64,000 bases of DNA from an uncultured Clostridia bacterium (lineage in GTDB: Bacteria; Bacillota; Clostridia; Tissierellales; Dethiosulfatibacteraceae). The stretch's first letter is position 1. Every line of letters begins with the position of its first letter. Of this stretch, positions 7,758 to 37,186 are shown in pieces. The position numbers and the translations under genes are program-made. The notes beneath the pieces were generated by a model, which saw only the letters and a list, made by a program, of their open reading frames with translations, was not told the DNA's origin and ran no database searches. The DNA lies in NCBI GenBank assembly GCA_927435965.1, contig CAKMKB010000144.1, positions 2,079-66,078 on the forward strand. The letters are read 5' to 3'.

Positions 7758-8651
7758 ATGTCTATAGGTTTTAGAAACTATAATAGAAAGGCTGGAATAA
7801 CAGAGGATTATTTCGAAGTTAGAGATTTTTTGATAGAATTAGGCTATAGTGAGTTTGTTTATGCCAGATGGGACTGGATGATAACGCACAGTTATCTGGA
7901 TAAGGAGGCCATCGGGAAAATAGGACTATGGGAAGACGATGGAAAACTTGTTGGAGTATCAACGTTTGATACAATACTATGCAACGCTTATTGCCTCACC
8001 AAGCCTGAGTATTCATTTCTTAAAAGAGAGATGCTAATCTATTCAAAAGAGCATTTAGTAGGTGACAGTGAATTTGGCATAGTTATTTCATCAAAGGATG
8101 TGGAATTTCAAAATATTGCTTTAGAATTAGGATTCACTGCAACCGAGGACACTGAGGACGATGCGGTCTTTTACGTGGATAAATCACCAACTGAGTATCA
8201 ATTGCCAGAGGGATATCATATAACAACAATGAAAGAAAATTACAATCCTTATGAGTATTTGAGAGTCCTTTGGAGAGGCTTTAATCATGAACTAAAAGGA
8301 GAAGGTGAATTTTCATTTTCGGAAGAAAAAAATAGAGGTGTGGATAGTGAAATGTTGCGTCCTAATGTCGATCTGGATCTTAAGTTAGCAGTTGTCGGAC
8401 CTAATGGACATTTTGTATCTTATTGTGGGATGTGGTACGACGAAAAGGCTGGATTTGCAATTATAGAACCAGTTGCAACAGATCCTGATTACAGGAAGAT
8501 GGGATTAGGTAAGGCAGCTGTTTTGGAAGGAATAAGTAGTGTTGGGAAACTAGGTGCTAAGATCGTGTTTGTAGGATCTTCACAACAATTCTATTACAGC
8601 ATCGGGATGGCGCCATATGCGACTTCTACTGTTTGGAAGCAACTCAAATAA
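7758..8651 (+). CDS. GNAT family N-acetyltransferase
   Basis: C-terminal GNAT core with acetyl-CoA loop IEPVATDPDYRKMGLGKAAVLEGI. Confidence 0.7.
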   Translation: MSIGFRNYNRKAGITEDYFEVRDFLIELGYSEFVYARWDWMITHSYLDKEAIGKIGLWEDDGKLVGVSTFDTILCNAYCLTKPEYSFLKREMLIYSKEHLVGDSEFGIVISSKDVEFQNIALELGFTATEDTEDDAVFYVDKSPTEYQLPEGYHITTMKENYNPYEYLRVLWRGFNHELKGEGEFSFSEEKNRGVDSEMLRPNVDLDLKLAVVGPNGHFVSYCGMWYDEKAGFAIIEPVATDPDYRKMGLGKAAVLEGISSVGKLGAKIVFVGSSQQFYYSIGMAPYATSTVWKQLK

Positions 8652-8671: not shown

Positions 8672-9796
8672 ATGAAAATTTCAAAAAAAGACGCATTGGC
8701 ATGGTTTGAGTTTTTCTCAATCCTGCCAGAAGATGAGGAAGTTATGACTAAGCAACAGGAAATCATTTACGCTACATTTGCACAAATTGAAGCATCGATT
8801 GATGCTAGAAATGATATGTTGATGTCGGAAATTACAAATCTGAAAACCTTAGACAACAGAACATTTTTTGTGGGGAATGAAAGCAAATTTCCACGAGGAT
8901 GTCGTTCATGTTTGTTGGGAACCGGACTGAGCGCTATCAGGAAAACCAACGTATGCAACCTGGAGTGTAAGTTCTGCTACAATTATGGGGAACTGGAGGA
9001 TATTTCACCTGTAGGAGAAGGCATGTGGGAAATTGGTGGCACCAAGTTCTATGATAAGGATATAGATCTGCTGCTATCCATCCATCAGAAACCAACCGGC
9101 ATTTCCTATGTTTTTCTAGAACCATTCATGGAAATTGAAAAGTATTATCCAATTATAAAGAAATTCAGTGATGCTCAGATTCATCAGCATTTATACACAA
9201 ATGGTACTTTAGCGACGGAAGAGACCTTAAAAGCATTGGGAGAAGCTGGACTTGATGAGATACGTTTCAATCTGGGGGCTTCCAATTGCTCGGACATAGT
9301 TATTGAAAACATTGGGATTGCAAAAAAATATATTAATAATATAGGTATTGAAACACCAATGACCCCAGAGTTCTTTGAAACCTTTTTTAAGAAAAAGCAA
9401 GCTATTTTAGAGACAAAACTAGACTTTATAAATTGTGCTGAGCTGCATCTAAATGCGAATAACATCGACAATTACGATGGAGAAAACATGTATATATCCC
9501 GACATGGTTACATATCACCGATTTGGAGTAGGGAATTGACATTGAAGTTCATGAAAACAGCTGTTGAAGAAAACTGGGATTTGGTGGTCCACGATTGCTC
9601 CAACTACACTAAATTTACAAGAGGTTTGAATCTAGCCAGCAAAGAAGGCAAGTGGTTCGGGTCCAGTAATTATGTATCTGAATTCTCAAAGATACCTTAT
9701 AAAGTGTTTTTGCCAATACTACGAGATGAGAGTTTTAAATTTTTAACTGAAGAAGAGCTGCCTGATGCCTATAAGCCAGGCGAAATGTTTTTTTAA
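8672..9796 (+). CDS. radical SAM protein (unassigned subfamily)
   Basis: CX3CX2C motif CNLECKFC, preceded by a CRSC pair; downstream TIM-barrel-like region (LYTNGTLA, DEIRFNLGAS). Confidence 0.75.
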   Translation: MKISKKDALAWFEFFSILPEDEEVMTKQQEIIYATFAQIEASIDARNDMLMSEITNLKTLDNRTFFVGNESKFPRGCRSCLLGTGLSAIRKTNVCNLECKFCYNYGELEDISPVGEGMWEIGGTKFYDKDIDLLLSIHQKPTGISYVFLEPFMEIEKYYPIIKKFSDAQIHQHLYTNGTLATEETLKALGEAGLDEIRFNLGASNCSDIVIENIGIAKKYINNIGIETPMTPEFFETFFKKKQAILETKLDFINCAELHLNANNIDNYDGENMYISRHGYISPIWSRELTLKFMKTAVEENWDLVVHDCSNYTKFTRGLNLASKEGKWFGSSNYVSEFSKIPYKVFLPILRDESFKFLTEEELPDAYKPGEMFF

Positions 9797-9806
9797 GGGG
9801 GATTTT

Positions 9807-10331
9807 ATGCATCAGATTAAATTAATAAAACCTACTATGGCTTATGCCAATGATATTATGGATTACAGACAGGAGTTTTTAGATTTAGGTGATAGTTTAG
9901 ACGGTTGCGGAAGCTTGCGAGCTTGTTCTACAGCTGAAGAATGGATTCGTGATTTGGTAATGCTTGAGAGTTTGGATACTTGTCCGAAAGATAAGGTTTG
10001 TTCAGATACCTACTTAGCAATAAGACTCAGTGATGATTCAATTGTTGGTATAATTGACTTCAGGCATCACATCAATCATCCAATTCTTGGCGTTTGGGGA
10101 GGACATATTGGTTATTCTGTTCGACCGAAAGAAAGAAGGAAGGGTTACGCAACAGAAATGCTTAAGCAGATTCTAGTCAAATGCAGATTACATGGCTTAG
10201 AAAAAGTCTTGGTAACCTGTAATAATGATAATGTTGCAAGTAAGAAAACAATCATCGCCAACGGTGGTATATATGAAAACACTGTATTGGTAGAGGGTGA
10301 TAAAAAAGAACGTTACTGGATTAATTTATAG
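9807..10331 (+). CDS. GNAT family N-acetyltransferase
   Basis: GNAT core GYSVRPKERRKGYATEMLKQIL. The ATG at 9807 is preferred over the ORF-track start 9765, which overlaps the radical SAM gene. Confidence 0.75.
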   Translation: MHQIKLIKPTMAYANDIMDYRQEFLDLGDSLDGCGSLRACSTAEEWIRDLVMLESLDTCPKDKVCSDTYLAIRLSDDSIVGIIDFRHHINHPILGVWGGHIGYSVRPKERRKGYATEMLKQILVKCRLHGLEKVLVTCNNDNVASKKTIIANGGIYENTVLVEGDKKERYWINL

Positions 10332-10346
10332 TCCCAAAGGTGTCCT

Positions 10347-11129
10347 CTATTTCAGAAAGGATTGAATGAGTCTTTTGGCATAAGGATTCTGAGGATTGGA
10401 GAGTATTTTTTCGGTACTGCCAATCTCAACAATTTCGCCTTGATACATAACAGCGATTCTATTGCACATATGTTTCACCACATTTAAATCATGGGTAATA
10501 AAAACATAAGTCAAGTCTAGCTCTTCTTTAAGCTTAAGAAGCAGATTCAATATCTGTCCCTGCACTGATACGTCCAGAGCAGAAACCGGTTCATCGCAGA
10601 CAATCACTTTTGCTCTTGTGGCAATTGCCCTTGCAATCAGGATTCTTTGATTTTGACCACCACTCAATTGTGATGGGAACTTGATTTTTTCTGATTTTGA
10701 CAACCCCACCATTTCCAGCAACCGATCTACCTCATCATCTATCTGATTCTTTGCAACCACCTGATGTATTTCAAGGGGTTCTCTTAGAAGCTCTTCAATT
10801 GTCATTTTTGGATCAAGTACTGCATGGGTGTATTGAAAAATGATTTGGATGTCTCTTCTGTTTAATCGCATGGATTCTTCACTCAAGTGCGTTATGTCTT
10901 TACCCAACAGCTCAATTCTTCCTTCACTCGGTTCGATCAGTTTAAGCAACAAATTGGCAATAGTCGTTTTTCCCGAACCGCTTTCTCCAATCAGACCCAG
11001 TGATTCTCCGGATTTTACTTCGAAGCTTACTTTTTTTACCGCTTCAATGGTTTTCTTTTTTGAAAAAACGTTGTTTCTGATAATAAAGTGTTTTGAAAGG
11101 TCTTGTACCTTTAAAGCAATATCAGACAT
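10347..11129 (-). CDS. ABC transporter ATP-binding protein, OppF/DppF-like
   Basis: Walker A GESGSGKT, signature LSGGQNQR, Walker B VIVCDEPVSALD. Confidence 0.9.
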   Translation of the reverse strand: MSDIALKVQDLSKHFIIRNNVFSKKKTIEAVKKVSFEVKSGESLGLIGESGSGKTTIANLLLKLIEPSEGRIELLGKDITHLSEESMRLNRRDIQIIFQYTHAVLDPKMTIEELLREPLEIHQVVAKNQIDDEVDRLLEMVGLSKSEKIKFPSQLSGGQNQRILIARAIATRAKVIVCDEPVSALDVSVQGQILNLLLKLKEELDLTYVFITHDLNVVKHMCNRIAVMYQGEIVEIGSTEKILSNPQNPYAKRLIQSFLK

Positions 11130-11133
11130 TTGC

Positions 11134-12093
11134 TCACCTCTTTTTAAACTTGATGCATCTAACTTTGCGGTTGTCCACTTCTACCATCTTTGGAATATCT
11201 ACAATGCATTCTGGCAATCTTTGTTTACATCTTGAAAAAAACGGACATTCGTTTGTAAACTGTAAAGGAGTAGGGGCAGTACCTTCAAGGGTATAAACAG
11301 GACTGTCTCCACGATTCAATGAACTGGCACATTTGATGAGCTCGCCAGTATACGGATGAAGTGGTTTTTCAAATATGTCACTCACAGACCCTTCTTCCAT
11401 TACCAGCCCTCCATACATGATAATTAGTCGGTCACACAGATACTTTGCCACATCAAAATCATGAGTAATGAGTATAATAGCCATACCTGATTTTTGATTT
11501 ATATTCTTTAATAAATCAAGCACAGTTTTCCTTAGAGAAGCATCAATGGAACTTGAGGGTTCATCGGCAATTAACAAGTCCGGTTTGCTGATTATTCCTT
11601 GAGCGATCATAATTCTCTGATTTTGGCCACCGCTTAATTGAAATGGGTACATGTCATAAATAGTATCAGCCTCTTCAAGCCCAACTTCCTTTAGAACATC
11701 CAATACAACGGTTCTGGAAAAAGGCAGTTTGTGATTTTTCAAGACCTCTGTCAACTGTAGTCCAATCTTCTTATAAGGATTCAAAGCACTGGAAGCATTT
11801 TGAAACACATAAGAAATTCGATTGCCTCTTATCTTTCTGTATTCCTTCTCTGAAAGTGATAGAAGATTTGTGCCCTTAAAAATTACGGTACCGGAGTCGA
11901 TAGATCCCGCTTCATCTTCTAATCTAAGAATGGAGGTTGCAGAAACAGTTTTCCCGCTGCCGGATTCTCCGAGAATTCCCAAAATCTCTCCACTAACCAT
12001 ACTCAGATCAAATCCTCTAACCACTTGAATGTTTTCGTTTTCTTGATAAAAAGAAACTATTAAATTTTTGACTGCAATGAGTTTATCATCCAT
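11134..12093 (-). CDS. ABC transporter ATP-binding protein, OppD/DppD-like
   Basis: Walker A GESGSGKT, LSGGQNQR, LLIADEPSSSID; C-terminal Opp-type extension with Cys cluster CPFFSRCKQRLPEC. Confidence 0.9.
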   Translation of the reverse strand: MDDKLIAVKNLIVSFYQENENIQVVRGFDLSMVSGEILGILGESGSGKTVSATSILRLEDEAGSIDSGTVIFKGTNLLSLSEKEYRKIRGNRISYVFQNASSALNPYKKIGLQLTEVLKNHKLPFSRTVVLDVLKEVGLEEADTIYDMYPFQLSGGQNQRIMIAQGIISKPDLLIADEPSSSIDASLRKTVLDLLKNINQKSGMAIILITHDFDVAKYLCDRLIIMYGGLVMEEGSVSDIFEKPLHPYTGELIKCASSLNRGDSPVYTLEGTAPTPLQFTNECPFFSRCKQRLPECIVDIPKMVEVDNRKVRCIKFKKR

Positions 12094-12118
12094 TTGAATA
12101 CTCCTTATGGAATAGTTA

Positions 12119-14380
12119 TCAATAATTATTATTATTGATAACTTCTAAAACAATGCTTCCTAAACTCTCCAACTCCCAAGAATTGTTGTCTGCTTTCAAT
12201 GTTCCCAATACGACTGTGGGTATTCCTCTGTTCCAGAAAAGTGCATTGTCTGAATCACGTTGAGTGAAATAATATGAACCGTCTATGTACTTAGTCTCCA
12301 ACAGTTGGATTGGATATCCCTTTTGATTAAGCTTTGATTCAAATTGATGACCGAGGCTCCATGCAAATTGTCTTGTTAAAGGGGCTTGCGCTGTGCTAAA
12401 TTCAATTGCCCCAAAGCGTTCATGATTAATTGACGTTAAATCCACATAAACTTGAATCTTTTGAGGACTATATGGAAAGTCCTTTGAAATATAATTAATC
12501 CCATGCTGTTTTTCATTGATCGTTCCATCAAGGAACAAGAATATGAAAGATCTTTTTTGGTCAGACATTTCACATAGCCGTTCCATAAGTTTCATATTGA
12601 ATTTCAATACTTCTCTACCTTCTTGATTTAAGTAATTGAAACTCATACCAACAACTATCGCCTCATCGCTAATATGAGGGTCAGTGCCATGGTGGATTCC
12701 TACCACATTATAACCAGTTGAAGTCAATGGCTTGACGACCGTCGTAATAGAAATCATTATGCCTGGATTTTCTTTTAGTGTTTGTGAAATCTCTTGAGAT
12801 ACAACAATTACAACATTGTCTTCATCAGCATCAACAATCATGTTTTGAATAATCTGACCCGATCGAGCAACAAGTATAACACCCTTTACACTAACATTAT
12901 CAGTAATTGTTTTTATGATGTGTTGAATAGCTGTATCACTATAATATAATTGATCAATCAACAAGAACTTGTTCTCAAATTGATTGTAACTTCCGATTTT
13001 GTATAAGTCATCCTTGGTGGCGTCATACACGACTCCAGATTCAGCGATGTTCCCGGAAGTCAAAATAGCATAATCCGTTCCTGGGTTTAAAATGTGTTCT
13101 CCACTTTCCAGGCGCAATGACATCATCTGTTCTTCAATCAAAAAAGATGCGCCGATATCATATGGCATTAACAGACTGTCCTTGTTCAATGGCTCAATAC
13201 CCAATCCAGACATATAATCTGCGATAAAATTAGCAGTATTAGCTGCCGCTTCTGTTCCAATTATAGTTGTCTCTGGCAGTTTGTTTTCTATAGAGGCGTA
13301 TCCGACGCTGTAATCCTCATAGTTGATTAACGAGAAGAATCCAATCGACAAGGTCAACATTGTTATCCATAATGCAATTTTGACTTTAGATTTCTTGTCA
13401 ATATTGGTCCGTAAATATTTAAAGTCCAGGGTTATTATTTTTCTAAATGCAAGAACGGATCGGGAATCTTTTTTTTGCATCATTGTCCTGAGTCCTTCCC
13501 CAAACAGATTAAAACCAAGTACACTTATAAAAAAGGCGAGAGCGGGATAGATTACTGTCCAAGGAGCGATACTGATTAATGTCCGTGATGTACTCAACAT
13601 GCTTGCCCACTCTGGCTCAAAGCTGATATCAGTATTAATCTGTATTCCTGAGGACGGGTCGTTAATCAATCCTAAATTTCCAATAAAAACTGAAAAAATT
13701 CCAAGTTGCATCAGTGTGGAAAGATTTCTTGCGATTTCCATAAAAAACAAAACAATAAGTTCTGGTGCAAGATGGGGCAACACATTTTCAATAGCAATTC
13801 TAAAATGCTTCTTTCCTATAGCTACTTCACCTTTAATAAAAGGCTGTGTCAATATTGTTTCTACTCTCTCCATGATAAGATTGCCTAGTCTAGCCCAACT
13901 GACAGCAGTTAACACCAAAATGAATGACAAGATAGACTGTTGTTTTTCAAGTCCAACGAAGTAATCCAACTTTAATATGATAATGGCAATCAATAAAGCC
14001 GGAATTGCAGAAAATATAACGTTGAACTGTTGGATGATAGACTTAGCGATTCTACTACCAAAGCCTGCATATAAGGCTATAGGCACTGCAATTAGAAATT
14101 GTCCAAGTGCGATAAAAACGCCTAATGATATAGTCAGTCTAGTGCCATAAATAATATAGCTATATATATCTCTACCTAAATGGTCACTACCGAAAATAAA
14201 ACCATCATCTGGAGAAAAAGGAGCGCGCTCTACTGATAGGCTTCCCTCATCATGAAGGAACCTTAAGTGCTGAATCGTGTAGGGGCTTTGACTGGCAAAC
14301 ATATCCGGAAAGAGCATTACTAATAGAATCAACATTAGAATAGTAACACCTAAAATCAGAGGTAAATTTCTTCTGCTCAT
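12119..14380 (-). CDS. OppC/DppC-like ABC permease fused to an extra TM helix and a ~430-aa C-terminal extracytoplasmic M28/PA-like domain
   Basis: N-terminal third carries the OppC signature PFSPDDGFIFGSDHLGRDIYSYIIYG and multiple TMs. After VKIALWITMLTLSIGFFSLI comes a soluble domain with a PA-like insert (KFLLIDQLYYSDTAIQHII..VKGVILVAR) and a degenerate peptidase core (YNVVGIHHGTDPHISDEAIVVGMSFNY; FIFLFLDG). Confidence 0.75.
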   Translation of the reverse strand: MSRRNLPLILGVTILMLILLVMLFPDMFASQSPYTIQHLRFLHDEGSLSVERAPFSPDDGFIFGSDHLGRDIYSYIIYGTRLTISLGVFIALGQFLIAVPIALYAGFGSRIAKSIIQQFNVIFSAIPALLIAIIILKLDYFVGLEKQQSILSFILVLTAVSWARLGNLIMERVETILTQPFIKGEVAIGKKHFRIAIENVLPHLAPELIVLFFMEIARNLSTLMQLGIFSVFIGNLGLINDPSSGIQINTDISFEPEWASMLSTSRTLISIAPWTVIYPALAFFISVLGFNLFGEGLRTMMQKKDSRSVLAFRKIITLDFKYLRTNIDKKSKVKIALWITMLTLSIGFFSLINYEDYSVGYASIENKLPETTIIGTEAAANTANFIADYMSGLGIEPLNKDSLLMPYDIGASFLIEEQMMSLRLESGEHILNPGTDYAILTSGNIAESGVVYDATKDDLYKIGSYNQFENKFLLIDQLYYSDTAIQHIIKTITDNVSVKGVILVARSGQIIQNMIVDADEDNVVIVVSQEISQTLKENPGIMISITTVVKPLTSTGYNVVGIHHGTDPHISDEAIVVGMSFNYLNQEGREVLKFNMKLMERLCEMSDQKRSFIFLFLDGTINEKQHGINYISKDFPYSPQKIQVYVDLTSINHERFGAIEFSTAQAPLTRQFAWSLGHQFESKLNQKGYPIQLLETKYIDGSYYFTQRDSDNALFWNRGIPTVVLGTLKADNNSWELESLGSIVLEVINNNNY

Positions 14381-14382
14381 TT

Positions 14383-16772
14383 CTATACCTCCTTTCTCTT
14401 CATAGGATTTATGATTTTTGCCAGCAGTTGGAAGCTTTTTGTAAGTATTATAAAGATGAGTCCCAATGTCAAAGCAAGCGGTACGAACCGATATACATCC
14501 TGACGATTATAAAGGTAAATTAGGAAGTAAAGGATCCCATGGTAATTGAATAAATACTCGACAACAATCATATTGGATAGTAACATTGTGACAATGGTCG
14601 GCATAGCATCGACAATTCTAAAAATTACAGCTGGCAGCAATTCAATAAATATGATTTTTTTCCTGGAAAAGCCTTTGGCTTTTTCGTTTTTAATGTAATC
14701 TTTCGTCAACTCTTCTTGAATGGCAATGAATGCAATCCTTGATATATAAATTGTTGGTATAATGGATAATGTAAATAGTGGAAGGATAAAGTTTTTAAGC
14801 GGTAGCATATCCTTCAAGGCAGGAAACTGTCGAGCAAAACCTGTATACATCAATAGAACAAACAATACAATAAGAACATCTGGGATAGAAAAAAACACAA
14901 GAGTGCCAAGAGATCCCAATCTTGATTTTCTTGAACGATATGCTTCATACATTCCCCGGAGAACACCTAATATCGTGGATAAAAATAATGATACGGTTAC
15001 TAGAGCAACGCTCAGCTTGCTAGAATTATATATAACTTTAAAAATATTACCTACTGAATCAGAACCATATATCCCGGCATCCAACATGTTTCGAAAAAAT
15101 AGAATACTTCTTTTCAATGACAGATAAAGAGAGACATTTGTTACGTTTTCTCCGTTGATTATTTTCATATCTGCATCAGTGTCAATATTTGCAAGCACAG
15201 CCAACATGAATATTGCTAATAAATAGGGGAATACATTAGCGTAGAATTTCCTTAGTAGCATATTTGGAGTTGAAAAGTATAGGGCTTCCCATGATTGACC
15301 AGGAATTTTTAACTTTGAGTTTTCAGTATAACCCTTGCTGATAGTATAACTGATCAAACCTCCTAAAATAAGAAATAAGAATAGATTTTTTTCAAAAGAT
15401 CCAAGATAATCTAGACTTACGTCTTTAAAAACATCTCTTTTTATGAAGGTTGCCAATATTTTTGCTGCATTATCAATAACAATTACATCTACATTATCAA
15501 ACTGATCTTCATAAGCATCAATCACACGGCTATTATCAGTTAGTAAAACAGATGGCACTTTTTTATCTGAAAATTGTGTAATCACGCCATATGCACTTGA
15601 CCTCATCTCAAGAGTTAGATTGTCATCCATGGCGTATTTCATAATCCTATCTCGTATGACAGAGCCGTTAATTGGATCAGAAGCAATAACCAAACCCATT
15701 ACTGTTTTTTTTCCAATGGATTCAATCTGGATAACAGTTGTCTTATCAAGCGGATGTAGAGCATTATTTGTGTAGTATTCCGATCCAGAAAGTTGTTGTT
15801 TTTGTCCATTCCACCCAGCAAATATTACTGTTTCGAAAGGCAAAGATTCCTGGTTGGACATAACTCTAGCTATTTCAAGCATTATTGCCAATCCCGAAGT
15901 ATTGTTGACAGCACCTGGAAAATGATTACCATTTGTACCTACCCCCAGTCCATCAATATCTGTTGAAATAATTAATATATTATTATTGGTAGATTTTCCT
16001 TCAATCTTACCAAAAAATTTGCAGTGTCTACAATAGGGTAGTCAATATCCACCTTGATGTTCATGATCTTCTCGGGTGCTGACTTCATGTATTTGTATGT
16101 ATCTGTTGAGACATACCCAACTAGAATAGAATCACCGGTTTTCCCAGCAACATTGAGAGATTTTGTTTTTTCAAATTCTTTAAAAAGACCAAACGAGCTC
16201 GAATCAGCACTACAGAGAACGCCCTTTCCTCCTGATTCTATAATGTGAGTCACAATCCTTGGTGTTATCTGGTTGTATTCGATTACTGCAATCCGATTTT
16301 TGATTTCAGAAGGATCAACCCTTAAGAAATCAGATCCAAGAACAATATATTCTCCTTGAAATAAAGTACTTCCGCCATTTGGAGACATAACGACGCTGTA
16401 ATCTCTATACATCTCAAAACTCTTATCAATTGTTCCATCGTTATTCATTATCGTAAAGACTGGTTCTGAATCAACTTGGGGAATAAGTACCGAAAAAGGT
16501 TGAAAGTAAGTTTCATCCACACCAGCTGGCTGAACTCCAATCTCTTGAAAATATGTTTGTATATAATTAAGTGCCTTATCATTCCCCGCACTTCCAGCTA
16601 AACGTCCACCATATTCTGAGGATGTCAACTCTCTTATATGGTTCATTATGTTGTCGGTGTTGAGTTGTGCTTCATCAAAAACATTTCTGGAATAACGCCA
16701 ATATAGAGATGTAACAAAAATTGCAATCAATACTATTGTGACCAAAAATTTGATTTGTTTAGTTGATTTCAC
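14383..16772 (-). pseudogene. frameshifted gene: TM anchor + M28/PA aminopeptidase-like ectodomain + OppB/DppB-like ABC permease (ORFs 15972-16772 and 14383-15891 joined)
   Basis: The two ORFs are consecutive parts of one M28-like domain. Reading the region between them in the downstream frame gives ..FFGKIEGKSTNNNILIISTDIDGLGVGTNGNHFPGAVNNTSGLAIMLEIARVM. One extra T in the minus-strand T6 run (plus-strand A6 at 16012-16017) restores ..DYPIVDTANFFGKIEGK... The C-terminal half has the permease EAA region DYIKNEKAKGFSRKKIIFIELLP. GTG start at 16772 after AAAGGTGG. Confidence 0.75.
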
Positions 16773-16825
16773 AAATCCGTACCACCTTTATGTAAATTAT
16801 GTTGAATCCATATCCACTCTTCCTG

Positions 16826-16854
16826 ATTTTACATAATAATCACCTTAACTTCAA
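16826..16854 (-). promoter_or_regulatory. candidate sigma-A promoter of the Opp-like operon
   Basis: Minus strand reads TTGAAG - 17 nt - TAAAAT, about 55 nt upstream of the GTG start. Confidence 0.45.
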
Positions 16855-16988
16855 GTCTATTTGACAAGAAACCCTCATTGATATGAAACGATATTTATTT
16901 TTAAATACACTTATTAGATGACAATACTCCGAAATCGGTTTAAAATGTTTATAATACAAAATCAATATCAGAAGCTCAGGAGGTTAAG

Positions 16989-17768
16989 ATGCACATTGAA
17001 CAAACAACTTATGAAAGAATTGAAGCAATGATTGAAAATTATGTGTTGAGAAATATGATTACAGTGGATTCTTTCTGGGAAAAACATATACTAGAAAGTA
17101 ACCATTATGCAGTTATTGATAAAGGAAGTATTATTGGATATTTTTCAATATTCAAGAAACACACCATTACATCGTTCTATTTAGATGATGAATACATACA
17201 ACATGGAAAATCAATATTTGAAAAAATCAAGCAATATGAACAAGTGACCAATGCATTGGTTTCAACCGGAGATGAATTCTTTATCAGCCATTGTGTAGAT
17301 AATTTTGAAAAACTTGAAAAGCAGGCATATTTCTCTATATATGGTAAAAACACATCTGAAACTTTCCAGAGAAAAACCCTCGAACTTGTACAACTACGAA
17401 CTAATGAAGATCTTGAATTATTAAGTCTTGCCGGTGATTTTTTTGCTGAAGATCCTATTGAGGATAGCATAAAAGAAGCAACATATTATAGAATCTACAA
17501 AGTATTGGAGAATGATCATCTGATTGGATTTGGGATTGTTGAGACAGGCCGAGTAATCAAGTCCATCGCCAGTATCGGTATGTATGTTATGGAAGAAAAA
17601 AGACAACAGGGCTATGCAAAAAACATTCTAAAAAATCTTCAAGAGTTGGTAGAATCAGAAGGATTCGAATGCAGATCTGGCTGTTGGTATTACAATCATA
17701 ATTCATTAAAAAGCATGGAAAGTGCTGGAGCGTATTCCAAAACAAGGCTACTAAGGTTTTTCTTTTAA
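16989..17768 (+). CDS. GNAT-like acetyltransferase (two-lobed)
   Basis: C-terminal lobe has a GNAT acetyl-CoA loop-like segment, MYVMEEKRQQGYAKNILKNL; RBS AGGAGG upstream. Confidence 0.6.
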   Translation: MHIEQTTYERIEAMIENYVLRNMITVDSFWEKHILESNHYAVIDKGSIIGYFSIFKKHTITSFYLDDEYIQHGKSIFEKIKQYEQVTNALVSTGDEFFISHCVDNFEKLEKQAYFSIYGKNTSETFQRKTLELVQLRTNEDLELLSLAGDFFAEDPIEDSIKEATYYRIYKVLENDHLIGFGIVETGRVIKSIASIGMYVMEEKRQQGYAKNILKNLQELVESEGFECRSGCWYYNHNSLKSMESAGAYSKTRLLRFFF

Positions 17769-17841
17769 TTATCTAGATTTAGCAATTCAAGTCAAGAAAA
17801 TATTATCATATGCTGATATCCTAGGGAAAGGAGGTGAGAAC

Positions 17842-18750
17842 ATGGAACGGTGGGAAGTAATAAATGCAGTTCAACGCATGCAAAACTATATTCATGAGCA
17901 CATCAATTCTCAAATAACACTTAGTGACCTTGCAAAAGCAGCGGGTTATTCGCAATGGCATGCGGCTAGAATATTTAAAGAACATTTAAGCAAAACACCA
18001 TTTGAGTATTTGAGAGCACTTAGATTGAGTCAAGCCGCATTGCAATTAAGGGATAAACAAACAAAAATTATTGATGTCGCTTTTGACTTTGTGTTTGATT
18101 CCCACGAAGGCTTCACAAGGGCGTTCTATAAGCAATTTGGGATTTGTCCAAAAAAGTATAGTGATAATCCCAAGCCCATTCAACTATTTATGCCCCATCG
18201 TATTCGTGAATATTACCTCACAATTTTAAAAGGAGAGATAGATATGACTGAGAAAAAAACCACAAATACTGTTTTTGTTCAAGTTGTAGAAAGACCAGCA
18301 AGAAAACTGATTTTAAAACGAGGAATTAAGGCAACCCACTATTTTGAATATTGTGAAGAGGTTGGTTGTGATGTTTGGGGAATGCTATCTAGCATCAAAG
18401 AAGCAATGTACGAACCCGCAGGTATGTGGCTCCCGAGTAATCTTATTAAGCCTGGAACATCGAAATACGTTCAAGGAGTAGAAGTTTCAGAACATTACTC
18501 AGGAGAAATTCCAGACGGTTTTGAAATGATTGATTTACCAGCCTGTAAAATGATGGTGTTTCAAGGTGAACCATATGATGATGAGATTTTTGGAGAAGCA
18601 ATCGAGGAATTATGGGCTGTGATGAAGAAGTATAATCCCCAGACTTATGGTTTTGAGTGGGCGGACAATGATGCGCCTAGATTCCAACTTGAGCCACAAG
18701 GATACAGAGGGTATATCGAGGCTAGACCAGTCAAGTTATTGAACCAATAA
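17842..18750 (+). CDS. AraC family transcriptional regulator with GyrI-like effector-binding C-terminal domain
   Basis: Two HTH units (LSDLAKAAGYSQWHAARIFKEH; DVAFDFVFDSHEGFTRAFYKQFG); C-terminal ~150 aa is typical of the GyrI/SOUL-like fold. Confidence 0.8.
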   Translation: MERWEVINAVQRMQNYIHEHINSQITLSDLAKAAGYSQWHAARIFKEHLSKTPFEYLRALRLSQAALQLRDKQTKIIDVAFDFVFDSHEGFTRAFYKQFGICPKKYSDNPKPIQLFMPHRIREYYLTILKGEIDMTEKKTTNTVFVQVVERPARKLILKRGIKATHYFEYCEEVGCDVWGMLSSIKEAMYEPAGMWLPSNLIKPGTSKYVQGVEVSEHYSGEIPDGFEMIDLPACKMMVFQGEPYDDEIFGEAIEELWAVMKKYNPQTYGFEWADNDAPRFQLEPQGYRGYIEARPVKLLNQ

Positions 18751-18762
18751 TTAGTAAAAAAT

Positions 18763-18804
18763 GCCAAAGGAAAGCAGTATAATGCTTTCCTTTGGCGTTT
18801 TTTT
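18763..18804. terminator. bidirectional rho-independent terminator
   Basis: 13-bp perfect stem gccaaaggaaagc / gctttcctttggc, 8-nt loop, with an A-run before it and gttttttt after it. Confidence 0.85.
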
Positions 18805-18835
18805 GATATTCAATATAGAGCAGTGTTTGGAAGCA

Positions 18836-19513
18836 CTAGTTCAGTCTATCTACTTGTTTTTGAAAAGCTAATAAATGACTTTCAGAGCCTTTCTTCAAAG
18901 CAGTGAAAACCTCAAAGACGTTTTCAGGCAAATCATAGGTCAAAAATATTTCATACATTGCAATGTTATCTATCTCTGCTTGTACACCAGTCTGTGCCGC
19001 TTCAAGCAAATTATCAGGCACTACAATATGGTCAATGGAGCTGTCTTCTGGAAAATCAAGTTCATATGATATATAAACTTCTTCTAAAAACGCAAGATGA
19101 CTCTCTTCGGACTTGATGATGTTCGTGTATGGTCTCTGCTTGCCGAATTTGTCAATGATGGACAAATACTCTCCACGTGCCAGGTATTCATCCTGAACCG
19201 CATACATTAACATATCAGTAATGCTTAACGATTGATCCGCCAAAGCACCTGCAGCACCATATCCCTCAAGAGATAATGCTTGATCATCGATAGTAAGTGG
19301 AGTTGGATTCATATCGACATTATGATTGACAGTATCCTGGACTACAGCCATTTGTTCTGTAGTTTCCTGAACTGACGTTGTTGTTTCATTAAATGTTTCT
19401 GATGTATTGCTACAACCTGATAGAATCACTATGCCACTGATCGTAAGTGATATGATTATAAGAACAGCAACAAATTTTTGTTTGGAAATAGATAAAGATT
19501 CATTTACAGACAT
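18836..19513 (-). CDS. lipoprotein with ferritin-like (DUF2202-type) domain
   Basis: Start at MSVNES after AAGGAGG; lipobox ILSGC; ferritin-like repeats DEYLARGEYLSIIDKFG and SEESHLAFLE .. GSESHLLAFQ. Confidence 0.65.
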   Translation of the reverse strand: MSVNESLSISKQKFVAVLIIISLTISGIVILSGCSNTSETFNETTTSVQETTEQMAVVQDTVNHNVDMNPTPLTIDDQALSLEGYGAAGALADQSLSITDMLMYAVQDEYLARGEYLSIIDKFGKQRPYTNIIKSEESHLAFLEEVYISYELDFPEDSSIDHIVVPDNLLEAAQTGVQAEIDNIAMYEIFLTYDLPENVFEVFTALKKGSESHLLAFQKQVDRLN

Positions 19514-19819
19514 TTTGAGTTCCTCCTTAAAGTATTCTGATATGATTATAGAATGAATATGTGTCAAAAATATGGCTCATTGATGACAAAGATAATTGAT
19601 TATACAGATTAATTAGTTGAATTGTTTTTTGATGCTTAAAATGATAAAATGTAGGTCAAACGTGGTTATGAGAACGTATACGATATTCTGACCTGATAGA
19701 GATCGCTACATAACTTACACCAATATGATTCAGTCAGAGTAGATATTAGGTAAGTTGCATGATTAGAAAACGCACTCATACTATAGGAGATGCTATTCTA
19801 TAAGAGAAAGGAGATGAAG

Positions 19820-20782
19820 ATGAGGATTTTGAAAGTATTAGGTATTGTTTTAATAATTGTTTTGTTTATGGTCATATTGTTTTTGATCGCTTCTATGATT
19901 AATCACAGGATTCAATTAAAAAAGGAGACTAGTGCTTACCCACCACCAGGCAGTATAGTTAATGTTAATGACAAAAAGCTTCATATATTTATAGCAGGAG
20001 AAGGTGATATTACTTTGGTTTTTATGGCGGGACATGGCACCAGTAGTCCTATATTGGATTTTAAACCCTTATGGATGAGGATGACAGATGATTACAGGAT
20101 TGCTGTGGTAGAAAAATCAGGCTATGGTTGGAGTGAGCCTTCAAACAGTCCACGAGATATCGATACTATTCTTGAGGAAACCAGAGAAGCGTTAAATCTC
20201 TCAGGAGAAAAAGGACCGTATATACTATTACCCCATTCCATGTCAGGACTGGAGGCGATTTATTGGGCACAGAAATACCCTGATGAAGTTACAGCAATCA
20301 TTGGGCTGGATCCCACTACACCAGAAGCTGTTGAAATACTTCCAATACCTCCAGGCATTCAATTGAATCTCATTTATTTAATAACCAGAATCGGTTTATC
20401 AAGATTAATGCCTGAAGCTGATTTGAGTGAAAATTTACCCTTGATGAAATCAAACGACTTGACTGAGGAAGATAAAAATCAGTATTTGGCTTCTTTTTTT
20501 AGAAGCTCTTTAACTAAAGATATGTTGAGAGAAATCACCAATCTGAACAACAACGCTCAGTTGGTGGCGACAAATGGAATTCCAGCCAATACTCCAATGT
20601 ACTTTTTTATTTCGGAAGAACAGGAAAAGCAAGTCAGCGGATGGGATAAGGCATTGACTGAATATCTTTCTAAGCTTGTTGTAAGTCGATTTATGCGCCT
20701 TGACACTGGTCATTATGTCCATCATGAAAAAGCTGACATTATTTCCGAGGCCATAAAAGCGTTTTTAAAAGAGATAAGGTGA
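19820..20782 (+). CDS. alpha/beta hydrolase, N-terminal TM anchor
   Basis: MRILKVLGIVLIIVLFMVILFLIA anchor; HSMSG nucleophile elbow; GHYVHHE near the C-terminus. ATG 19820 sits 6 nt after AGGAG. Confidence 0.8.
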   Translation: MRILKVLGIVLIIVLFMVILFLIASMINHRIQLKKETSAYPPPGSIVNVNDKKLHIFIAGEGDITLVFMAGHGTSSPILDFKPLWMRMTDDYRIAVVEKSGYGWSEPSNSPRDIDTILEETREALNLSGEKGPYILLPHSMSGLEAIYWAQKYPDEVTAIIGLDPTTPEAVEILPIPPGIQLNLIYLITRIGLSRLMPEADLSENLPLMKSNDLTEEDKNQYLASFFRSSLTKDMLREITNLNNNAQLVATNGIPANTPMYFFISEEQEKQVSGWDKALTEYLSKLVVSRFMRLDTGHYVHHEKADIISEAIKAFLKEIR

Positions 20783-24766: not shown

Positions 24767-26113
24767 ATGATGTTTGATTTGGAATCAAATGTGACCGCAT
24801 GGAGCGACCAATTGCGTTCAAATGGTAAATTATCAGAAGAAGATGTAATGGAGTTGGAGGGGCATTTACGTGAACAGGTTGATGAGTTGATAGAAAAAGG
24901 ATTGATGGAGGATGAGGCTTTTTTAATTAGCATTAAGCGATTAGGAAATCTCAATATCCTATCAAAGGAATATTCCAAGGTTAATATCGATGACTTCTGG
25001 AAGCAATTGCTGCTGGATTCTGATGATCCGATTGCAAGTAAGAAGAGTCGTCGTAATGTTTTATTGATTGTTCTATTTTCCTTATTGGCTGGAACATCAA
25101 TTAGATTAACTACCTTATTGGGCGTTGACATTGAGAGCTTAACTTTTTTTAAAAACCTTAGTTTTTTCATCCTGCCCTTGATTGTTTTATTCTTTGGAAT
25201 AATGCGTGGTGTAAGCAAGAAGCTTATCAGTTATGTTTTAGGTATATTTCTTGTCACAGCTGTGATAATCAATCTGTATCCATCATATAGCCCTAATCAT
25301 ACTGAGATGTTGACGGGCATTCATCTGCCGATCATGCTGTGGATGGTGACTGGCGTTGCTTATATGGGTCAAAAGTGGCGGCTTGGTCAGGAGCGCATGA
25401 ATTTTATACGTTTTACTGGCGAAAGCATAATATATGGCAGTCTGATAGTGCTTGGATCGATAGTCTTAATGCTGTTTATAGTCGTTATTTTTGAAACTAT
25501 TGCAATAGATATTAGTGATGTGGTACTAAATTACATCATAATCTATGGCGGGTGTGCTGTCGTGATGGTAACAGTCTACTTAGCTGAGACTAAAAAAAGT
25601 GTTGTTGAAAATTTTGCCCCTATTCTTGCTAAATTATTCAGTCCGTTGTTTTTAGTGGTGATGTTAGCCTTCCTGTCAGTCATGGTGATTACAGGCAAGA
25701 GTCCGTTTGTTGATAGGGATTTTTTGATTGGTTTTGATTTGATGCTTGTATTGGTTTTAGGAATGGTTTTGTATACTATTTCTGCAAGAAATATTTATCA
25801 TAAATCCAATATCTTTGATTACTTAAACGTAGCTTTGATCGTGACGGCGATTGTTGTTGATACGATTGCCTTGACTGCTATTATCTCAAGATTGTCAGTT
25901 TATGGTGTTAGTCCAAATAAACTTGCCGCTTTAGGCGAAAATATTCTATTGTTCATTAATCTTGCCGGACTGCTATGGTTATACATAAAATATTTTAAGA
26001 GCAAGATAGAGTTCAGTAAAATTGAAAGCTGGCAAACTACATATCTCAGTGTATATGCCATATGGATGGCTGTCGTTGTGTTTGTGTTTCCAATTATCTT
26101 TAAGTTTCAATAA
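24767..26113 (+). CDS. polytopic membrane protein with cytoplasmic N-terminal helical prefix (PadR-associated, DUF4153-like)
   Basis: N-terminal ~90 aa soluble segment (EEDVMELEGHLREQVDELIEKG) followed by about 10 hydrophobic helices; 6-nt gap to padR. Confidence 0.65.
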   Translation: MMFDLESNVTAWSDQLRSNGKLSEEDVMELEGHLREQVDELIEKGLMEDEAFLISIKRLGNLNILSKEYSKVNIDDFWKQLLLDSDDPIASKKSRRNVLLIVLFSLLAGTSIRLTTLLGVDIESLTFFKNLSFFILPLIVLFFGIMRGVSKKLISYVLGIFLVTAVIINLYPSYSPNHTEMLTGIHLPIMLWMVTGVAYMGQKWRLGQERMNFIRFTGESIIYGSLIVLGSIVLMLFIVVIFETIAIDISDVVLNYIIIYGGCAVVMVTVYLAETKKSVVENFAPILAKLFSPLFLVVMLAFLSVMVITGKSPFVDRDFLIGFDLMLVLVLGMVLYTISARNIYHKSNIFDYLNVALIVTAIVVDTIALTAIISRLSVYGVSPNKLAALGENILLFINLAGLLWLYIKYFKSKIEFSKIESWQTTYLSVYAIWMAVVVFVFPIIFKFQ

Positions 26114-34513: not shown

Positions 34514-37105
34514 TCATTTTCGCACCTTAAAAAGCTTACTAATCTCACCAAACAGTAGAGGGATCAAAGAAAAGCCAAATGCTATCATCAAATGATTAAT
34601 TGATAAAGAGTGAATTGCAAAGATGCTCCTAAAAGCTGGTGTCATCAGAATAATAAATGTCAACACATAAGAACCTGCAACGGCTATGTTTAGATATCTG
34701 TTGCCAAACAATCCGATTTTAAACAATGACTTGGTTTCTGATCTGCCTGAAAAAGCACGTAGTAGCTCTCCACTAATCAAGGTAAGAAAAGCGAAAGTAT
34801 TGGCGTAATCAGGATTGATACTAAAGCCAAATCTGAATGACAGCAGAGTTGCCAATGCTAATCCAGTTGCTTGAAAAAGAACACTCAGGGTCATCTTTTT
34901 GTCAACAATGGGAGCATCAGGATTACGAGGTTTTTGCTTCATCACATCATCTTCTTGCGGCTCCATACCGAGTGCAAAAGCTGGAAATGAATCAGTAATC
35001 AAATTGACCCACAAGAGTTGTATAGGTCTCAAAGGAGATCCCCATCCAAGAAGCATGGCAATGAAAATTAAAGCGATTTCTCCGATGTTGCATGAAATCA
35101 GAAAACTGACAAATTTACGGATGTTGCTGAATATGACTCTGCCTTCCTCAACAGCAACTACAATCGAAACAAAGTTATCGTCTGTCAGAATCATATCAGC
35201 TGCTTCCTTGGCTACATCTGTTCCGGTTATACCCATAGCAATACCTATATCCGCCTTTTTCAAAGAAGGCGCATCGTTAACACCGTCTCCTGTCATGGCT
35301 ACTATGTGACCGGATTGCTTCAAAGCGGACACAATTCTGACTTTGTTGTCGGGGGATACTCTGCTGAAGGCATTTGTATAAGCTAATTTTTCCAGGAATG
35401 TAGCATCATCCATCTGATCAATTTCACGACCTGTTATGGCGGTATCCGAACCTTCTAGAAGGCCAATTTCCCTACCTATTGCAGATGCTGTAACAGCGTG
35501 GTCGCCTGTAATCATAATTGTTCTGATGCCTGCAGTATGACATTTTTCGATAGCATGAAATACCTCAGGTCGTGAAGGGTCTATCATACCCGACATCCCA
35601 CAAAAAATCATATTTTCCTCTTCGCCTAGAGAGATATCCTCTGAAATCACTTCTTTGTAAGCATAACAAAGCACTCTAAGGGCATTGGATGCCCATTTCA
35701 AATAAATGGTATTGATTTGATCTCTATAACTGTCAATATCCAGAATATCATCCATAATCTGTACTCTGTCGCATATCTCTAAAATTGAATCTGGGGACCC
35801 TTTCGTAAACATCACATGTTGTCCTTCTAGGTTATGCAAAGTAGACATCATTTTCCTGTCCGAGTCAAAGGGAATTTCGCCTAATCTCGGGTATCTATTA
35901 CGTATATCAGCCTGATTGTATTCTGATTTAGCAGCCATTACAATCAAAGCCCCCTCGGTAGGATCTCCTATTATGCCCACTTGCTCAGAGTCTATTGCAG
36001 CATCGTTGTTTAGTATAGCAGCCTTCATCATATAATCCAGGCTAATCGATGGAGTGATGTCTTTAATCAATCCCTCAAGACCATAACCCGTTCCGGTTAC
36101 TTCATACTCTTTCATATCAACCATTACATTTGTAACGGTCATCTTATTCTGTGTAAGAGTCCCAGTTTTATCAGAACAAATGACAGTGGTGCTGCCAAGA
36201 GTCTCAACTGAGGAGAGGTTTTTAGCCAACACATTGCGTTTAACCATCCTCTTCATACCCAATGCCAGTATGACAGTCACAATAGCAGGTAAACCTTCTG
36301 GCACTGCTGCAACTGCAAGGCTTACAGAAATCATGAAAATCTCCATCAGAGGCATGTTTCTCAACAACCCGAGTATAAAAATTAGAATGCATACAACAAT
36401 ACATGTTATACCTAGTTTATTTCCAAGAGAGTTCAATTTTTGCTGTAAAGGTGTTTCTTCATCCTTTTCTTCTAAAACACCAGCAATCTTACCGATTTCT
36501 GTGTTCATTCCTGTGTCTGTGATTATACCTTGAGATCTACCATAGGTTACAGTAGTCCCCATATAAGCCATATTAATCCTTTCCGCTAGGGGAGCACCAT
36601 CCTCAACTACTGCATTACTATCTTTTTCCACCGGAACCGATTCACCTGTCAGAGAGGACTCTTCGATTTTCAAATTTATGGAATTGAGTAGCTTTAAGTC
36701 AGCAGGAACAAGACTGCCAGCATCTAGCTGCACAGTATCTCCTGGCACAAGACCCTCTGATGGGATTTCTTTTATCACACCATCTCGGATAACTTTAGCG
36801 TATGGAGTAGTCATGTTTTTTAGTGCTTGCACCGCATCACCGGCACTTTTTTCCTGCTTTGCACCAACTAAAGCGTTTAAAAAAACAATTATCATAATTG
36901 CTATGGATTCTGTAAATTCACCTACAAAAGCTGAAATGATAGCGGCTGTAATTAAAATCAATATTAGGATACTTTTAAACTGATTGAAAAAAAGCCCCCA
37001 AAAAGTTATCCTTTTGGCCTCTCTTAATCGGTTTTCTCCGTATTCTTCTAATAGTTTATTTGCTTGCTCGGTAGTAAGTCCTTGTTTTAAAGGGTCCTTT
37101 TGCAA
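34514..37105 (-). CDS. P-type (type II) Ca2+-transporting ATPase
   Basis: DKTGTLT phosphorylation site, TGES, MITGDH, TGDGVNDAPSLKKADIGIAMG, PEGLP in TM4. Likely TTG start at 37105, 8 nt after GGAGG; the ORF track extends to 37174. Confidence 0.9.
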   Translation of the reverse strand: MQKDPLKQGLTTEQANKLLEEYGENRLREAKRITFWGLFFNQFKSILILILITAAIISAFVGEFTESIAIMIIVFLNALVGAKQEKSAGDAVQALKNMTTPYAKVIRDGVIKEIPSEGLVPGDTVQLDAGSLVPADLKLLNSINLKIEESSLTGESVPVEKDSNAVVEDGAPLAERINMAYMGTTVTYGRSQGIITDTGMNTEIGKIAGVLEEKDEETPLQQKLNSLGNKLGITCIVVCILIFILGLLRNMPLMEIFMISVSLAVAAVPEGLPAIVTVILALGMKRMVKRNVLAKNLSSVETLGSTTVICSDKTGTLTQNKMTVTNVMVDMKEYEVTGTGYGLEGLIKDITPSISLDYMMKAAILNNDAAIDSEQVGIIGDPTEGALIVMAAKSEYNQADIRNRYPRLGEIPFDSDRKMMSTLHNLEGQHVMFTKGSPDSILEICDRVQIMDDILDIDSYRDQINTIYLKWASNALRVLCYAYKEVISEDISLGEEENMIFCGMSGMIDPSRPEVFHAIEKCHTAGIRTIMITGDHAVTASAIGREIGLLEGSDTAITGREIDQMDDATFLEKLAYTNAFSRVSPDNKVRIVSALKQSGHIVAMTGDGVNDAPSLKKADIGIAMGITGTDVAKEAADMILTDDNFVSIVVAVEEGRVIFSNIRKFVSFLISCNIGEIALIFIAMLLGWGSPLRPIQLLWVNLITDSFPAFALGMEPQEDDVMKQKPRNPDAPIVDKKMTLSVLFQATGLALATLLSFRFGFSINPDYANTFAFLTLISGELLRAFSGRSETKSLFKIGLFGNRYLNIAVAGSYVLTFIILMTPAFRSIFAIHSLSINHLMIAFGFSLIPLLFGEISKLFKVRK

Positions 37106-37186
37106 AATGTTGGCCTCCAATTTATAAATAATTTGATAATTATTATATATATTAATACTATCATTATAACACAAATAATAAAAAAG

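Follow-up and report, generated by a model that had tools for sequence, protein, structure and literature searches.

In a 64,000-nucleotide stretch from an uncultured Clostridia bacterium (contig CAKMKB010000144.1 of assembly GCA_927435965.1; the whole stretch is hereafter the window), positions 10347-16772 carry four genes, B, C, D and F, named after the subunits of the Opp/Dpp-type ABC importers. All lie on the minus strand, in this order and with gaps of only 2, 25 and 4 nt, as a first-pass annotation of this DNA had described. This locus is one instance of a cassette of four genes, conserved and self-contained, in which both permeases bear a large peptidase-like ectodomain and no family-5 substrate-binding protein (SBP) is encoded. 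This cassette is rare and, outside annotation, we found no characterisation of it: in public annotation the family proteins go under the names "M28 family peptidase" or "ABC transporter permease subunit", and a full-text literature search of incomplete coverage gave no study of an M28-permease fusion.

Gene B (14383..16772), once repaired for a 1-nt deletion considered below, encodes a protein of 796 amino acids (aa): an N-terminal transmembrane anchor, an M28/PA ectodomain, an extra transmembrane helix and a six-helix OppB-type permease. Pfam recognizes in it Peptidase_M28 (PF04389, residues 252-443, full profile, E 5e-14) and BPD_transp_1 (PF00528, residues 603-793, E 5e-14). The ectodomain, of M28 fold with a PA-type insertion, covers residues 28-452 of the repaired protein (15418..16691, minus strand); the membrane part (14386..15417, minus strand), placed by Pfam, NCBIfam, structure prediction and hydropathy, comprises the extra helix (~459-484) and the OppB-type core with its EAA loop, DYIKNEKAKGFSRKKIIFIELLP. 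The AlphaFold2 (AF2) model of the orthologue P0001, from a Dethiosulfatibacter sp. metagenome-assembled genome (MAG), displays eight transmembrane helices (predicted local distance difference test, pLDDT, 83.4): the anchor at 2-29, then past the ectodomain (30-448 in the model) the extra helix at 459-484, and the canonical six of OppB, with the EAA helices at 692-711.

Gene C begins with its permease core, of OppC/NikC type according to Pfam and NCBIfam (residues 1-305, 13466..14380, minus strand; BPD_transp_1 at residues 98-302, E 1.5e-8). The six helices of this core are followed by a 40-aa linker with 12 Lys/Arg, by a seventh helix found in the hydropathy scan (residues 335-353, 13322..13378, minus strand), which brings the chain back outside after the cytoplasmic Lys/Arg-rich linker, and by a C-terminal ectodomain of 401 aa, pseudo-M28/PA by AF2, Foldseek and hhalign (residues 353-753, 12122..13324, minus strand). 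A first threshold on Kyte-Doolittle hydropathy skipped the extra helix of B and the fifth helix of C; the former was settled by the AF2 model, the latter is inferred from sequence and canonical OppC topology only. Helix parity, with EAA loops and Lys/Arg-rich linkers inside, places both heads outside the cell, so that both are predicted to be outward-facing. Each permease thus has an extracytoplasmic domain covalently fused to its transmembrane domain.

The ATPases are an OppD type of 319 aa (11134..12093, minus strand), with ABC_tran and the full oligo_HPY profile (1-65/65), and an OppF type of 260 aa (10347..11129, minus strand), with ABC_tran and a truncated C-terminal domain matching only the first 25 positions of oligo_HPY. 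Their ATPase motifs are intact, GESGSGKT and LSGGQNQR being present in both. The Pfam domains uphold the identities first given to permeases and ATPases, and the other quoted motifs could all be retrieved—PFSPDDGFIFGSDHLGRDIYSYIIYG in C, DYIKNEKAKGFSRKKIIFIELLP in B, VVGMSFNY and FLFLDGTINEKQHG. The best NCBIfam matches (Opp2B/DppB for B, Opp2C/NikC/Opp4C for C, OppD and OppF/DppF for the ATPases) all remain far under the equivalog cutoffs. The last ~40 residues of OppD contain a four-Cys cluster (CPFFSRCKQRLPEC…VRC) within oligo_HPY, a domain most of which OppF lacks, and this asymmetry is kept throughout the family. Family-wide, unfused F ORFs (open reading frames) measure 252-299 aa; at three loci (L028:11188-12792, L030:11215-12819 and L051:10895-12739) a single ORF of 534-614 aa encodes D and F as one fused protein.

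No binding protein accompanies these subunits. A hidden Markov model (HMM) was built from the family-5 SBPs OppA, DppA, NikA, GsiB, YejA and SapA of E. coli; it finds control SBPs of Enterococcus, Bacillus, Ligilactobacillus and Haloferax at E 1e-62 to 6e-75. The family was sampled at one genome per species, the loci being recovered through the head of C (n=50). With or without the controls added to the model, and with filters off, no family-5 SBP was detected among the ORFs of these 50 loci ±10 kb or of the 64-kb window (best E 3.7); over the window ORFs of at least 80 aa the best E was 4.8. No SBP turned up either when the 20 largest of the other window ORFs were scanned with Pfam, and the precomputed Pfam annotation lists neither PF00496 nor any other SBP family among the neighbours of the cassette at five diverse loci. 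The original statement that the window encodes no family-5 SBP thus holds, and the prospect that homologous loci carry an adjacent OppA gene came to nothing (0/50 within ±10 kb): the cognate SBP_bac_5 gene usual in such an operon is missing from this window and from the surroundings of the cassette over that distance.

The head of B is M28/PA-like, as proposed from the letters alone: besides its Pfam match, phmmer against the PDB aligns it with PaAP/KP1 (8ac9), the Aneurinibacillus aminopeptidase 2ek8, GCPII-type proteins and AAP/SGAP. With the P0001 model, Foldseek returns 2ek8 first by E-value (1.4e-23, TMt 0.68), then PaAP, and the highest TM-score is reached with BSAP, 6hc6 (TMt 0.78, rmsd 3.8). 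We aligned 44 B heads with six canonical M28 controls, which read H-D-D-E-E-D plus H at the metal site. In the window the five zinc ligands H, D, E, D and H are replaced by D272, N290, K325, E351 and D419; the first of these stands for the His ligand, the second for the bridging Asp, the third and fourth for the Glu and Asp ligands and the fifth for the last His. The catalytic Glu, the general base, has become Q324, and only the second-shell Asp is kept, as the near-invariant D274. Among 39 close relatives none has His at 272 or Asp at 290, and Gln occupies 324 in 35/39. The announced loss of the zinc site in the OppB-fused head therefore stands for the ligands and the catalytic Glu, in the window as in its clade, but the fifth position had been read from a wrong motif: K404, in "FSDKKVP", belongs to no ligand column, since the canonical controls also have K/R/N there. 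The true column of the last His is that of the later "yHxPxD" motif.

The head of C has no Pfam match; its M28/PA nature, also suspected from the start, comes out of structure and profile comparisons. Its AF2 model (pLDDT 90.6) retrieves by Foldseek 2ek8 (E 4e-19), PaAP, BSAP, GCPII and the transferrin receptor (E about 1e-15), and hhalign matches it to a profile led by canonical M28 at 99.45% (E 4e-22, 360 columns); the profile-profile probability against the B-head family is 88.9%. This head had been described as the more diverged of the two. In the order of the zinc ligands its equivalents are S, a deleted loop, I, T (D295 standing two residues upstream) and a gap, and all of its relatives are degenerate (48/48), with ligands replaced and partly deleted: N/S/G for His, N230 for Asp in 47/48, and the bridging-Asp loop deleted; D295 is invariant. 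The equivalent of the catalytic Glu is T268, T in 39/48, so the general base is absent as well. By these alignments the C head is catalytically dead in every member, an ancient pseudo-enzyme.

Despite its lost ligands, the vestigial site is the most conserved part of the C head. The motifs YNY, F(L/W)DGT, D295-L-T and QAPxTRxFAWS are invariant in the family, and about half of the 16 most conserved positions (N230, R258, F264, D266, G267, D295, P315 and R318) lie at or beside vestigial motifs 1, 3 and 4 or QAPxTR. This makes the C head, on conservation, the better candidate for an indispensable binding or docking module. It is hardly met outside the cassette architecture: its relatives amount to 35 clusters in one protein search and to 61 representatives among 1.84 billion in another, and in all but one full-length match (about 700-820 aa) the domain is the C-terminal half. 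Free-standing relatives of the C head, sought in these two large searches, were not retained as a class, since almost only the same architecture was returned.

The carriers of the cassette are almost only anaerobic Clostridia. Among them are the complete Wukongibacter genomes NZ_CP138200 and NZ_CP138202, Gudongella, Soehngenia, Maledivibacter halophilus, Anaerosolibacter carboniphilus, Clostridium intestinale DSM 6191, C. yunnanense and Fusibacter bizertensis, and, as MAGs, Christensenellaceae, Vallitaleaceae and two Spirochaetales; for the latter two, horizontal transfer or binning contamination is suggested. The order B-C-D-F is kept at 50/50 loci, and likewise at L001-L005 and L009-L011.

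The B head, unlike that of C, is not uniformly degenerate. Six B proteins present the complete H-D-D-E-E-D-H site (those of L039, L040, L042, L048 and L061, and a second copy in L038), and in L052 and L057 only the catalytic Glu is missing. In a neighbour-joining tree of C, which is midpoint-rooted and approximate, the members with an intact site are spread over three or more separate lineages, with degenerate ones in between; the window clade (28 sequences, i.e. 27 loci and the window) is uniformly of the N/D-D-N/S-Q type wherever a full-length B head could be scored. Judged by its residues, the B head is an intact di-zinc aminopeptidase in some lineages and a degenerate one in others, including that of the window. 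Since distant members keep H-D-E-E-D-H in B, the fusion is older than the loss of catalysis, and the order of events first put forward, in which the peptidases lost catalysis and were then recruited, has to be abandoned. Taking canonical M28 for the outgroup state, B was catalytic in the ancestral fusion and its catalysis was lost several times, C being already a pseudo-enzyme.

Some loci depart from the one-copy pattern. In Wukongibacter baidiensis a second M28-OppB gene with the full H-D-D-E-E-D-H site follows OppF (L038:13029-15524), the in-cassette B being degenerate (NDNRED), and in Wukongibacter sp. M2B1 an upstream paralogue of B (L037:3863-6341) is frameshifted near residue 645. These extra B genes suggest interchangeable active and inactive B subunits. 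In one Spirochaetales MAG the C gene is in pieces in different frames (L056:8581-10900). The split B at L027:7665-7833, considered as a second frameshift, was rejected because it corresponds to an N-masked gap.

In the window itself, gene B is not the single ORF it had been taken for. The ORF 15972-16772 (GTG start) is closed by a stop codon after 266 aa, and what is left of the protein (14383-15891, about 500 aa) lies in another frame. The frames join at a T6 run (16012..16017) in the minus-strand GCAAATTTTTTGG, read as GCA AAT TTT TT- GGT AAG, where one added base gives back the 796-aa protein, 90% identical over 100% of the length to P0001, intact and also of 796 aa. Orthologues of B are single ORFs of 796-840 aa and read AAT GTT TTA GGT (N-V-L-G) at this site, which identifies the lesion as a 1-nt deletion; the segment "NFFGKIEGK" of the first-pass annotation came from a translation that ran over the missing base unnoticed. 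The same T6-bearing 31-mer occurs on three other contigs, L006, L007 and L008 (European Nucleotide Archive, ENA, assembly ERZ22146367 and the Logan assemblies of ERR7625741 and ERR7625742). L007 and L008 are identical to the window and L006 is so across the operon only, which points to the same strain and not to independent lineages. L006 was accordingly rejected as an independent lineage for a test of selection after the frameshift: its operon is identical and only the flanking GNAT and AraC genes differ (dS, the synonymous divergence, 0.25-0.54).

Could a full-length B nevertheless be made in this strain? The frameshift might be a homopolymer artefact of sequencing or assembly, or it might be bypassed by -1 slippage on U_UUU_UUG. 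The -1 shift brings back the orthologous sequence and length exactly, a slip on T_TTT_TTG restoring ANFLGKIEGK, and purifying selection is in evidence: against the 90%-identical orthologue the ratio of nonsynonymous to synonymous divergence (dN/dS) is 0.126 for B, 0.115 for C, 0.098 for D and 0.104 for F, ranges over 0.08-0.27 for all parts of the four genes, and downstream of the lesion in B stays at 0.08-0.12, on par with the neighbours and with no further lesion. As B does not decay, the lesion must be recent, bypassed or artefactual. On the other hand, the same deletion is present in assemblies of at least two runs, and ERZ22146367 also contains the undamaged B gene of a sister strain (L010), so that the pipeline does not break this site systematically. 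No stimulatory RNA structure was found in the 113 nt 3' of the slip site, which fold no better than shuffles (z = -0.68), and as all frameshifted contigs belong to one strain they give no evolutionary sign that the lesion is tolerated; for these two reasons a programmed frameshift is unsupported. That full-length B is produced by either route therefore appears doubtful to us. Unless all assemblies share a homopolymer error, the window copy has most likely become a pseudogene very recently or relies on infrequent -1 slippage; the cassette is probably inactivated in this window. A real deletion without bypass would leave a downstream product that begins inside the M28 domain and has no membrane anchor, and the heterodimeric permease is then predicted to be non-functional.

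The region is also heterogeneous between strains. Compared with the sister strain L009, window positions 8672-18750 show a mosaic divergence: the AraC gene is identical (dS 0), the radical-SAM gene nearly so (dS 0.004), the C head is at dS 0.09 and the permease parts of B and C are at dS about 0.5. Together with the divergent flanks of L006, this mosaic suggests recombination between co-occurring strains or chimeric metagenome contigs.

The operon is surrounded in the window by GNAT acetyltransferases, a radical-SAM gene, two alpha/beta hydrolases and an AraC regulator, a neighbourhood common only to the close relative L009. When the flanking ORFs of the 50 loci were clustered, no conserved partner gene emerged beyond clade-level synteny (at most 7 loci per cluster). 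GNAT genes lie at 7758-8651, 9765-10331 and 16989-17768, with a PALP-GNAT fusion farther off at 59405-60784; elsewhere, three in a row flank the Gudongella cassette downstream (L005/L021) and one is near it in L001 and L003, a recurrence which is inconsistent across the family. The divergent intergenic region between gene B and the adjacent GNAT gene (16773..16988) contains promoter-like hexamers and no riboswitch or T-box: Rfam, which includes both, gave no match at E <= 1 in window positions 9000-20000, nor any upstream of the cassette in seven other loci. Two genes upstream of the operon, at 18836-19567 on the minus strand, a DUF2202 protein has a lipoprotein-like signal (…ILSGC); its gene is syntenic in L009 only, and it is not an SBP by the HMM. 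Farther away are an ORF of 448 aa without Pfam match at E <= 1e-4 (24767-26113, plus strand) and a 967-aa protein with a GtrA/DPMS transmembrane domain and a full YfhO domain (37233-40136, minus strand), adjoining a P-type cation ATPase (34514-37174).

How could such a transporter work without OppA? We propose that it would be an Opp/Dpp-type importer of peptides or of their N-terminal residues, and that its two tethered peptidase-fold heads, assumed to sit over the mouth of the permease, would take on the job of OppA: catch the substrate, pass it to the translocation pathway and license ATP hydrolysis. Given the aminopeptidase ancestry of the heads, the substrate caught would most plausibly be peptide N-termini. 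In members of the ancestral type the B head might also trim peptides on site, in a cleave-and-import mode; in the window clade it would at most bind, without cutting. The named hosts, which we take to be peptide- and amino-acid-fermenting anaerobes, would fit such a substrate. That the cassette is a self-sufficient Opp-type importer in which the two heads replace OppA is plausible in our eyes, at somewhat short of an even chance. The more explicit version, i.e. a binding-protein-independent type-I importer whose receptor is a heterodimer of peptidase-fold heads from both permeases, one an ancient pseudo-enzyme and the other ancestrally a working aminopeptidase, is offered as a tentative one.

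Several observations weigh against this proposal. The replacement of OppA by the heads is a plausible deduction from sequence, and that the heads sit over the permease is an assumption, the models being of single proteins. The vestigial ligand columns of the degenerate B heads show no more than average conservation (30th-60th percentile of column entropies), which is not what a tightly selected ligand pocket would look like. The window copy of B is frameshifted with no recoding signal found and, as sequenced, may be a dead copy. Finally, the system may be served by a binding protein whose gene lies elsewhere in the genome; orphan, trans-encoded OppA paralogues are common in Firmicutes. This last point leads to a conventional reading, namely a binding-protein-dependent Opp/Dpp importer with its OppA-type lipoprotein elsewhere, in which the heads would be accessories: tethered aminopeptidases or former ones which trim or concentrate peptides close to the transporter, or structural spacers in the Gram-positive wall. 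The canonical external loops have been kept (a TM1-TM2 loop of 58-59 aa, the "GSDxLGRD" motif of OppC), and the intact sites of some B heads point to an enzymatic accessory role. Yet no SBP gene lies within ±10 kb of any of the 50 loci and no conserved partner gene accompanies them, and a mere accessory peptidase would not account for the C head, which is never catalytic although all members strongly conserve its vestigial site. We hold this conventional reading to be unlikely.

The absence of an SBP in cis and the presence of large ectodomains on both transmembrane domains would also suit a machine that imports nothing. The ATPase cycle could drive conformational work in the external heads, in the manner of FtsEX, LolCDE or MacB, for instance for the control of a surface peptidase or receptor, or it could power export, as claimed for SapBCDF and putrescine; E. 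coli SapBCDF is indeed an exporter in RefSeq annotation. But the transmembrane domains are BPD_transp_1 cores of type-I importers with EAA loops, and the ATPases are of OppD/F type with oligo_HPY, whereas the known mechanotransmitters have a different transmembrane fold. Regulation of a peptidase, besides, cannot be the conserved function, as catalysis on B was repeatedly lost. A non-importing role thus looks quite improbable.

The self-sufficient importer that we propose can be compared with several known systems. With the Opp/Dpp/Nik importers (PepT, TC 3.A.1.5; OppABCDF and DppABCDF of E. coli) the cassette shares OppB/OppC permeases with EAA loops, OppD/OppF ATPases with an oligo_HPY region, and the order B-C-D-F; it differs by the lack of an SBP_bac_5 gene in the operon or within ±10 kb, by two (B) or one (C) extra transmembrane helices, each permease having an M28/PA ectodomain of 400-425 aa, and by NCBIfam scores far below the family cutoffs. 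In OpuA/GlnPQ-type ABC importers the substrate-binding domains are covalently fused to the transmembrane domain, and the likeness is evident: fused extracytoplasmic domains, two tethered heads per complex, no separate receptor gene. However, these domains have the periplasmic-binding-protein fold and the importers belong to other ABC families, while the top Foldseek matches listed for the cassette heads, 50 for each, are M28/PA proteins and none has the SBP fold; the binding role of the heads is putative.

The PA-domain M28 aminopeptidases (B. subtilis BSAP/YwaD 6hc6, Aneurinibacillus AM-1 2ek8, P. aeruginosa PaAP 8ac7) are the best structural matches of both heads, with TMt up to 0.78 across the entire ectodomain, PA insertion included, and some B heads of the family keep their full H-D-E-E-D-H. 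But these enzymes are secreted and soluble; the window heads are fused to transporter subunits, and in B the zinc ligands and the catalytic Glu have been replaced, in C replaced and in part deleted. The nearest conceptual parallel of the heads is, by analogy, the transferrin receptor, in which membrane-anchored M28 and PA (apical) domains with a lost metal site, features that the cassette heads have too, are used for binding. The receptor is eukaryotic, works by endocytosis and has an added helical dimerisation domain; no such domain is apparent in the heads of 400-425 aa, which match bacterial enzymes of ~410 aa end to end.

Type-I ABC importers are defined by their need for a substrate-binding protein of one structural superfamily. 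If our proposal is true, this rule would be broadened, an OppA-type component having been exchanged for tethered peptidase-fold heads, and, in the more explicit version, the cassette would be the first importer of its class with a capture fold other than that of SBPs, with exopeptidase action physically coupled to uptake in some lineages. Bacteria would then have a counterpart of the transferrin receptor, itself a dead M28/PA peptidase that has become a receptor. The question is directly testable in cultured carriers—Clostridium intestinale DSM 6191, Maledivibacter halophilus, Wukongibacter, Anaerosolibacter carboniphilus and Gudongella; and with intact and dead members in one family, the cassette offers a natural series on the change from an enzyme to a binding module.

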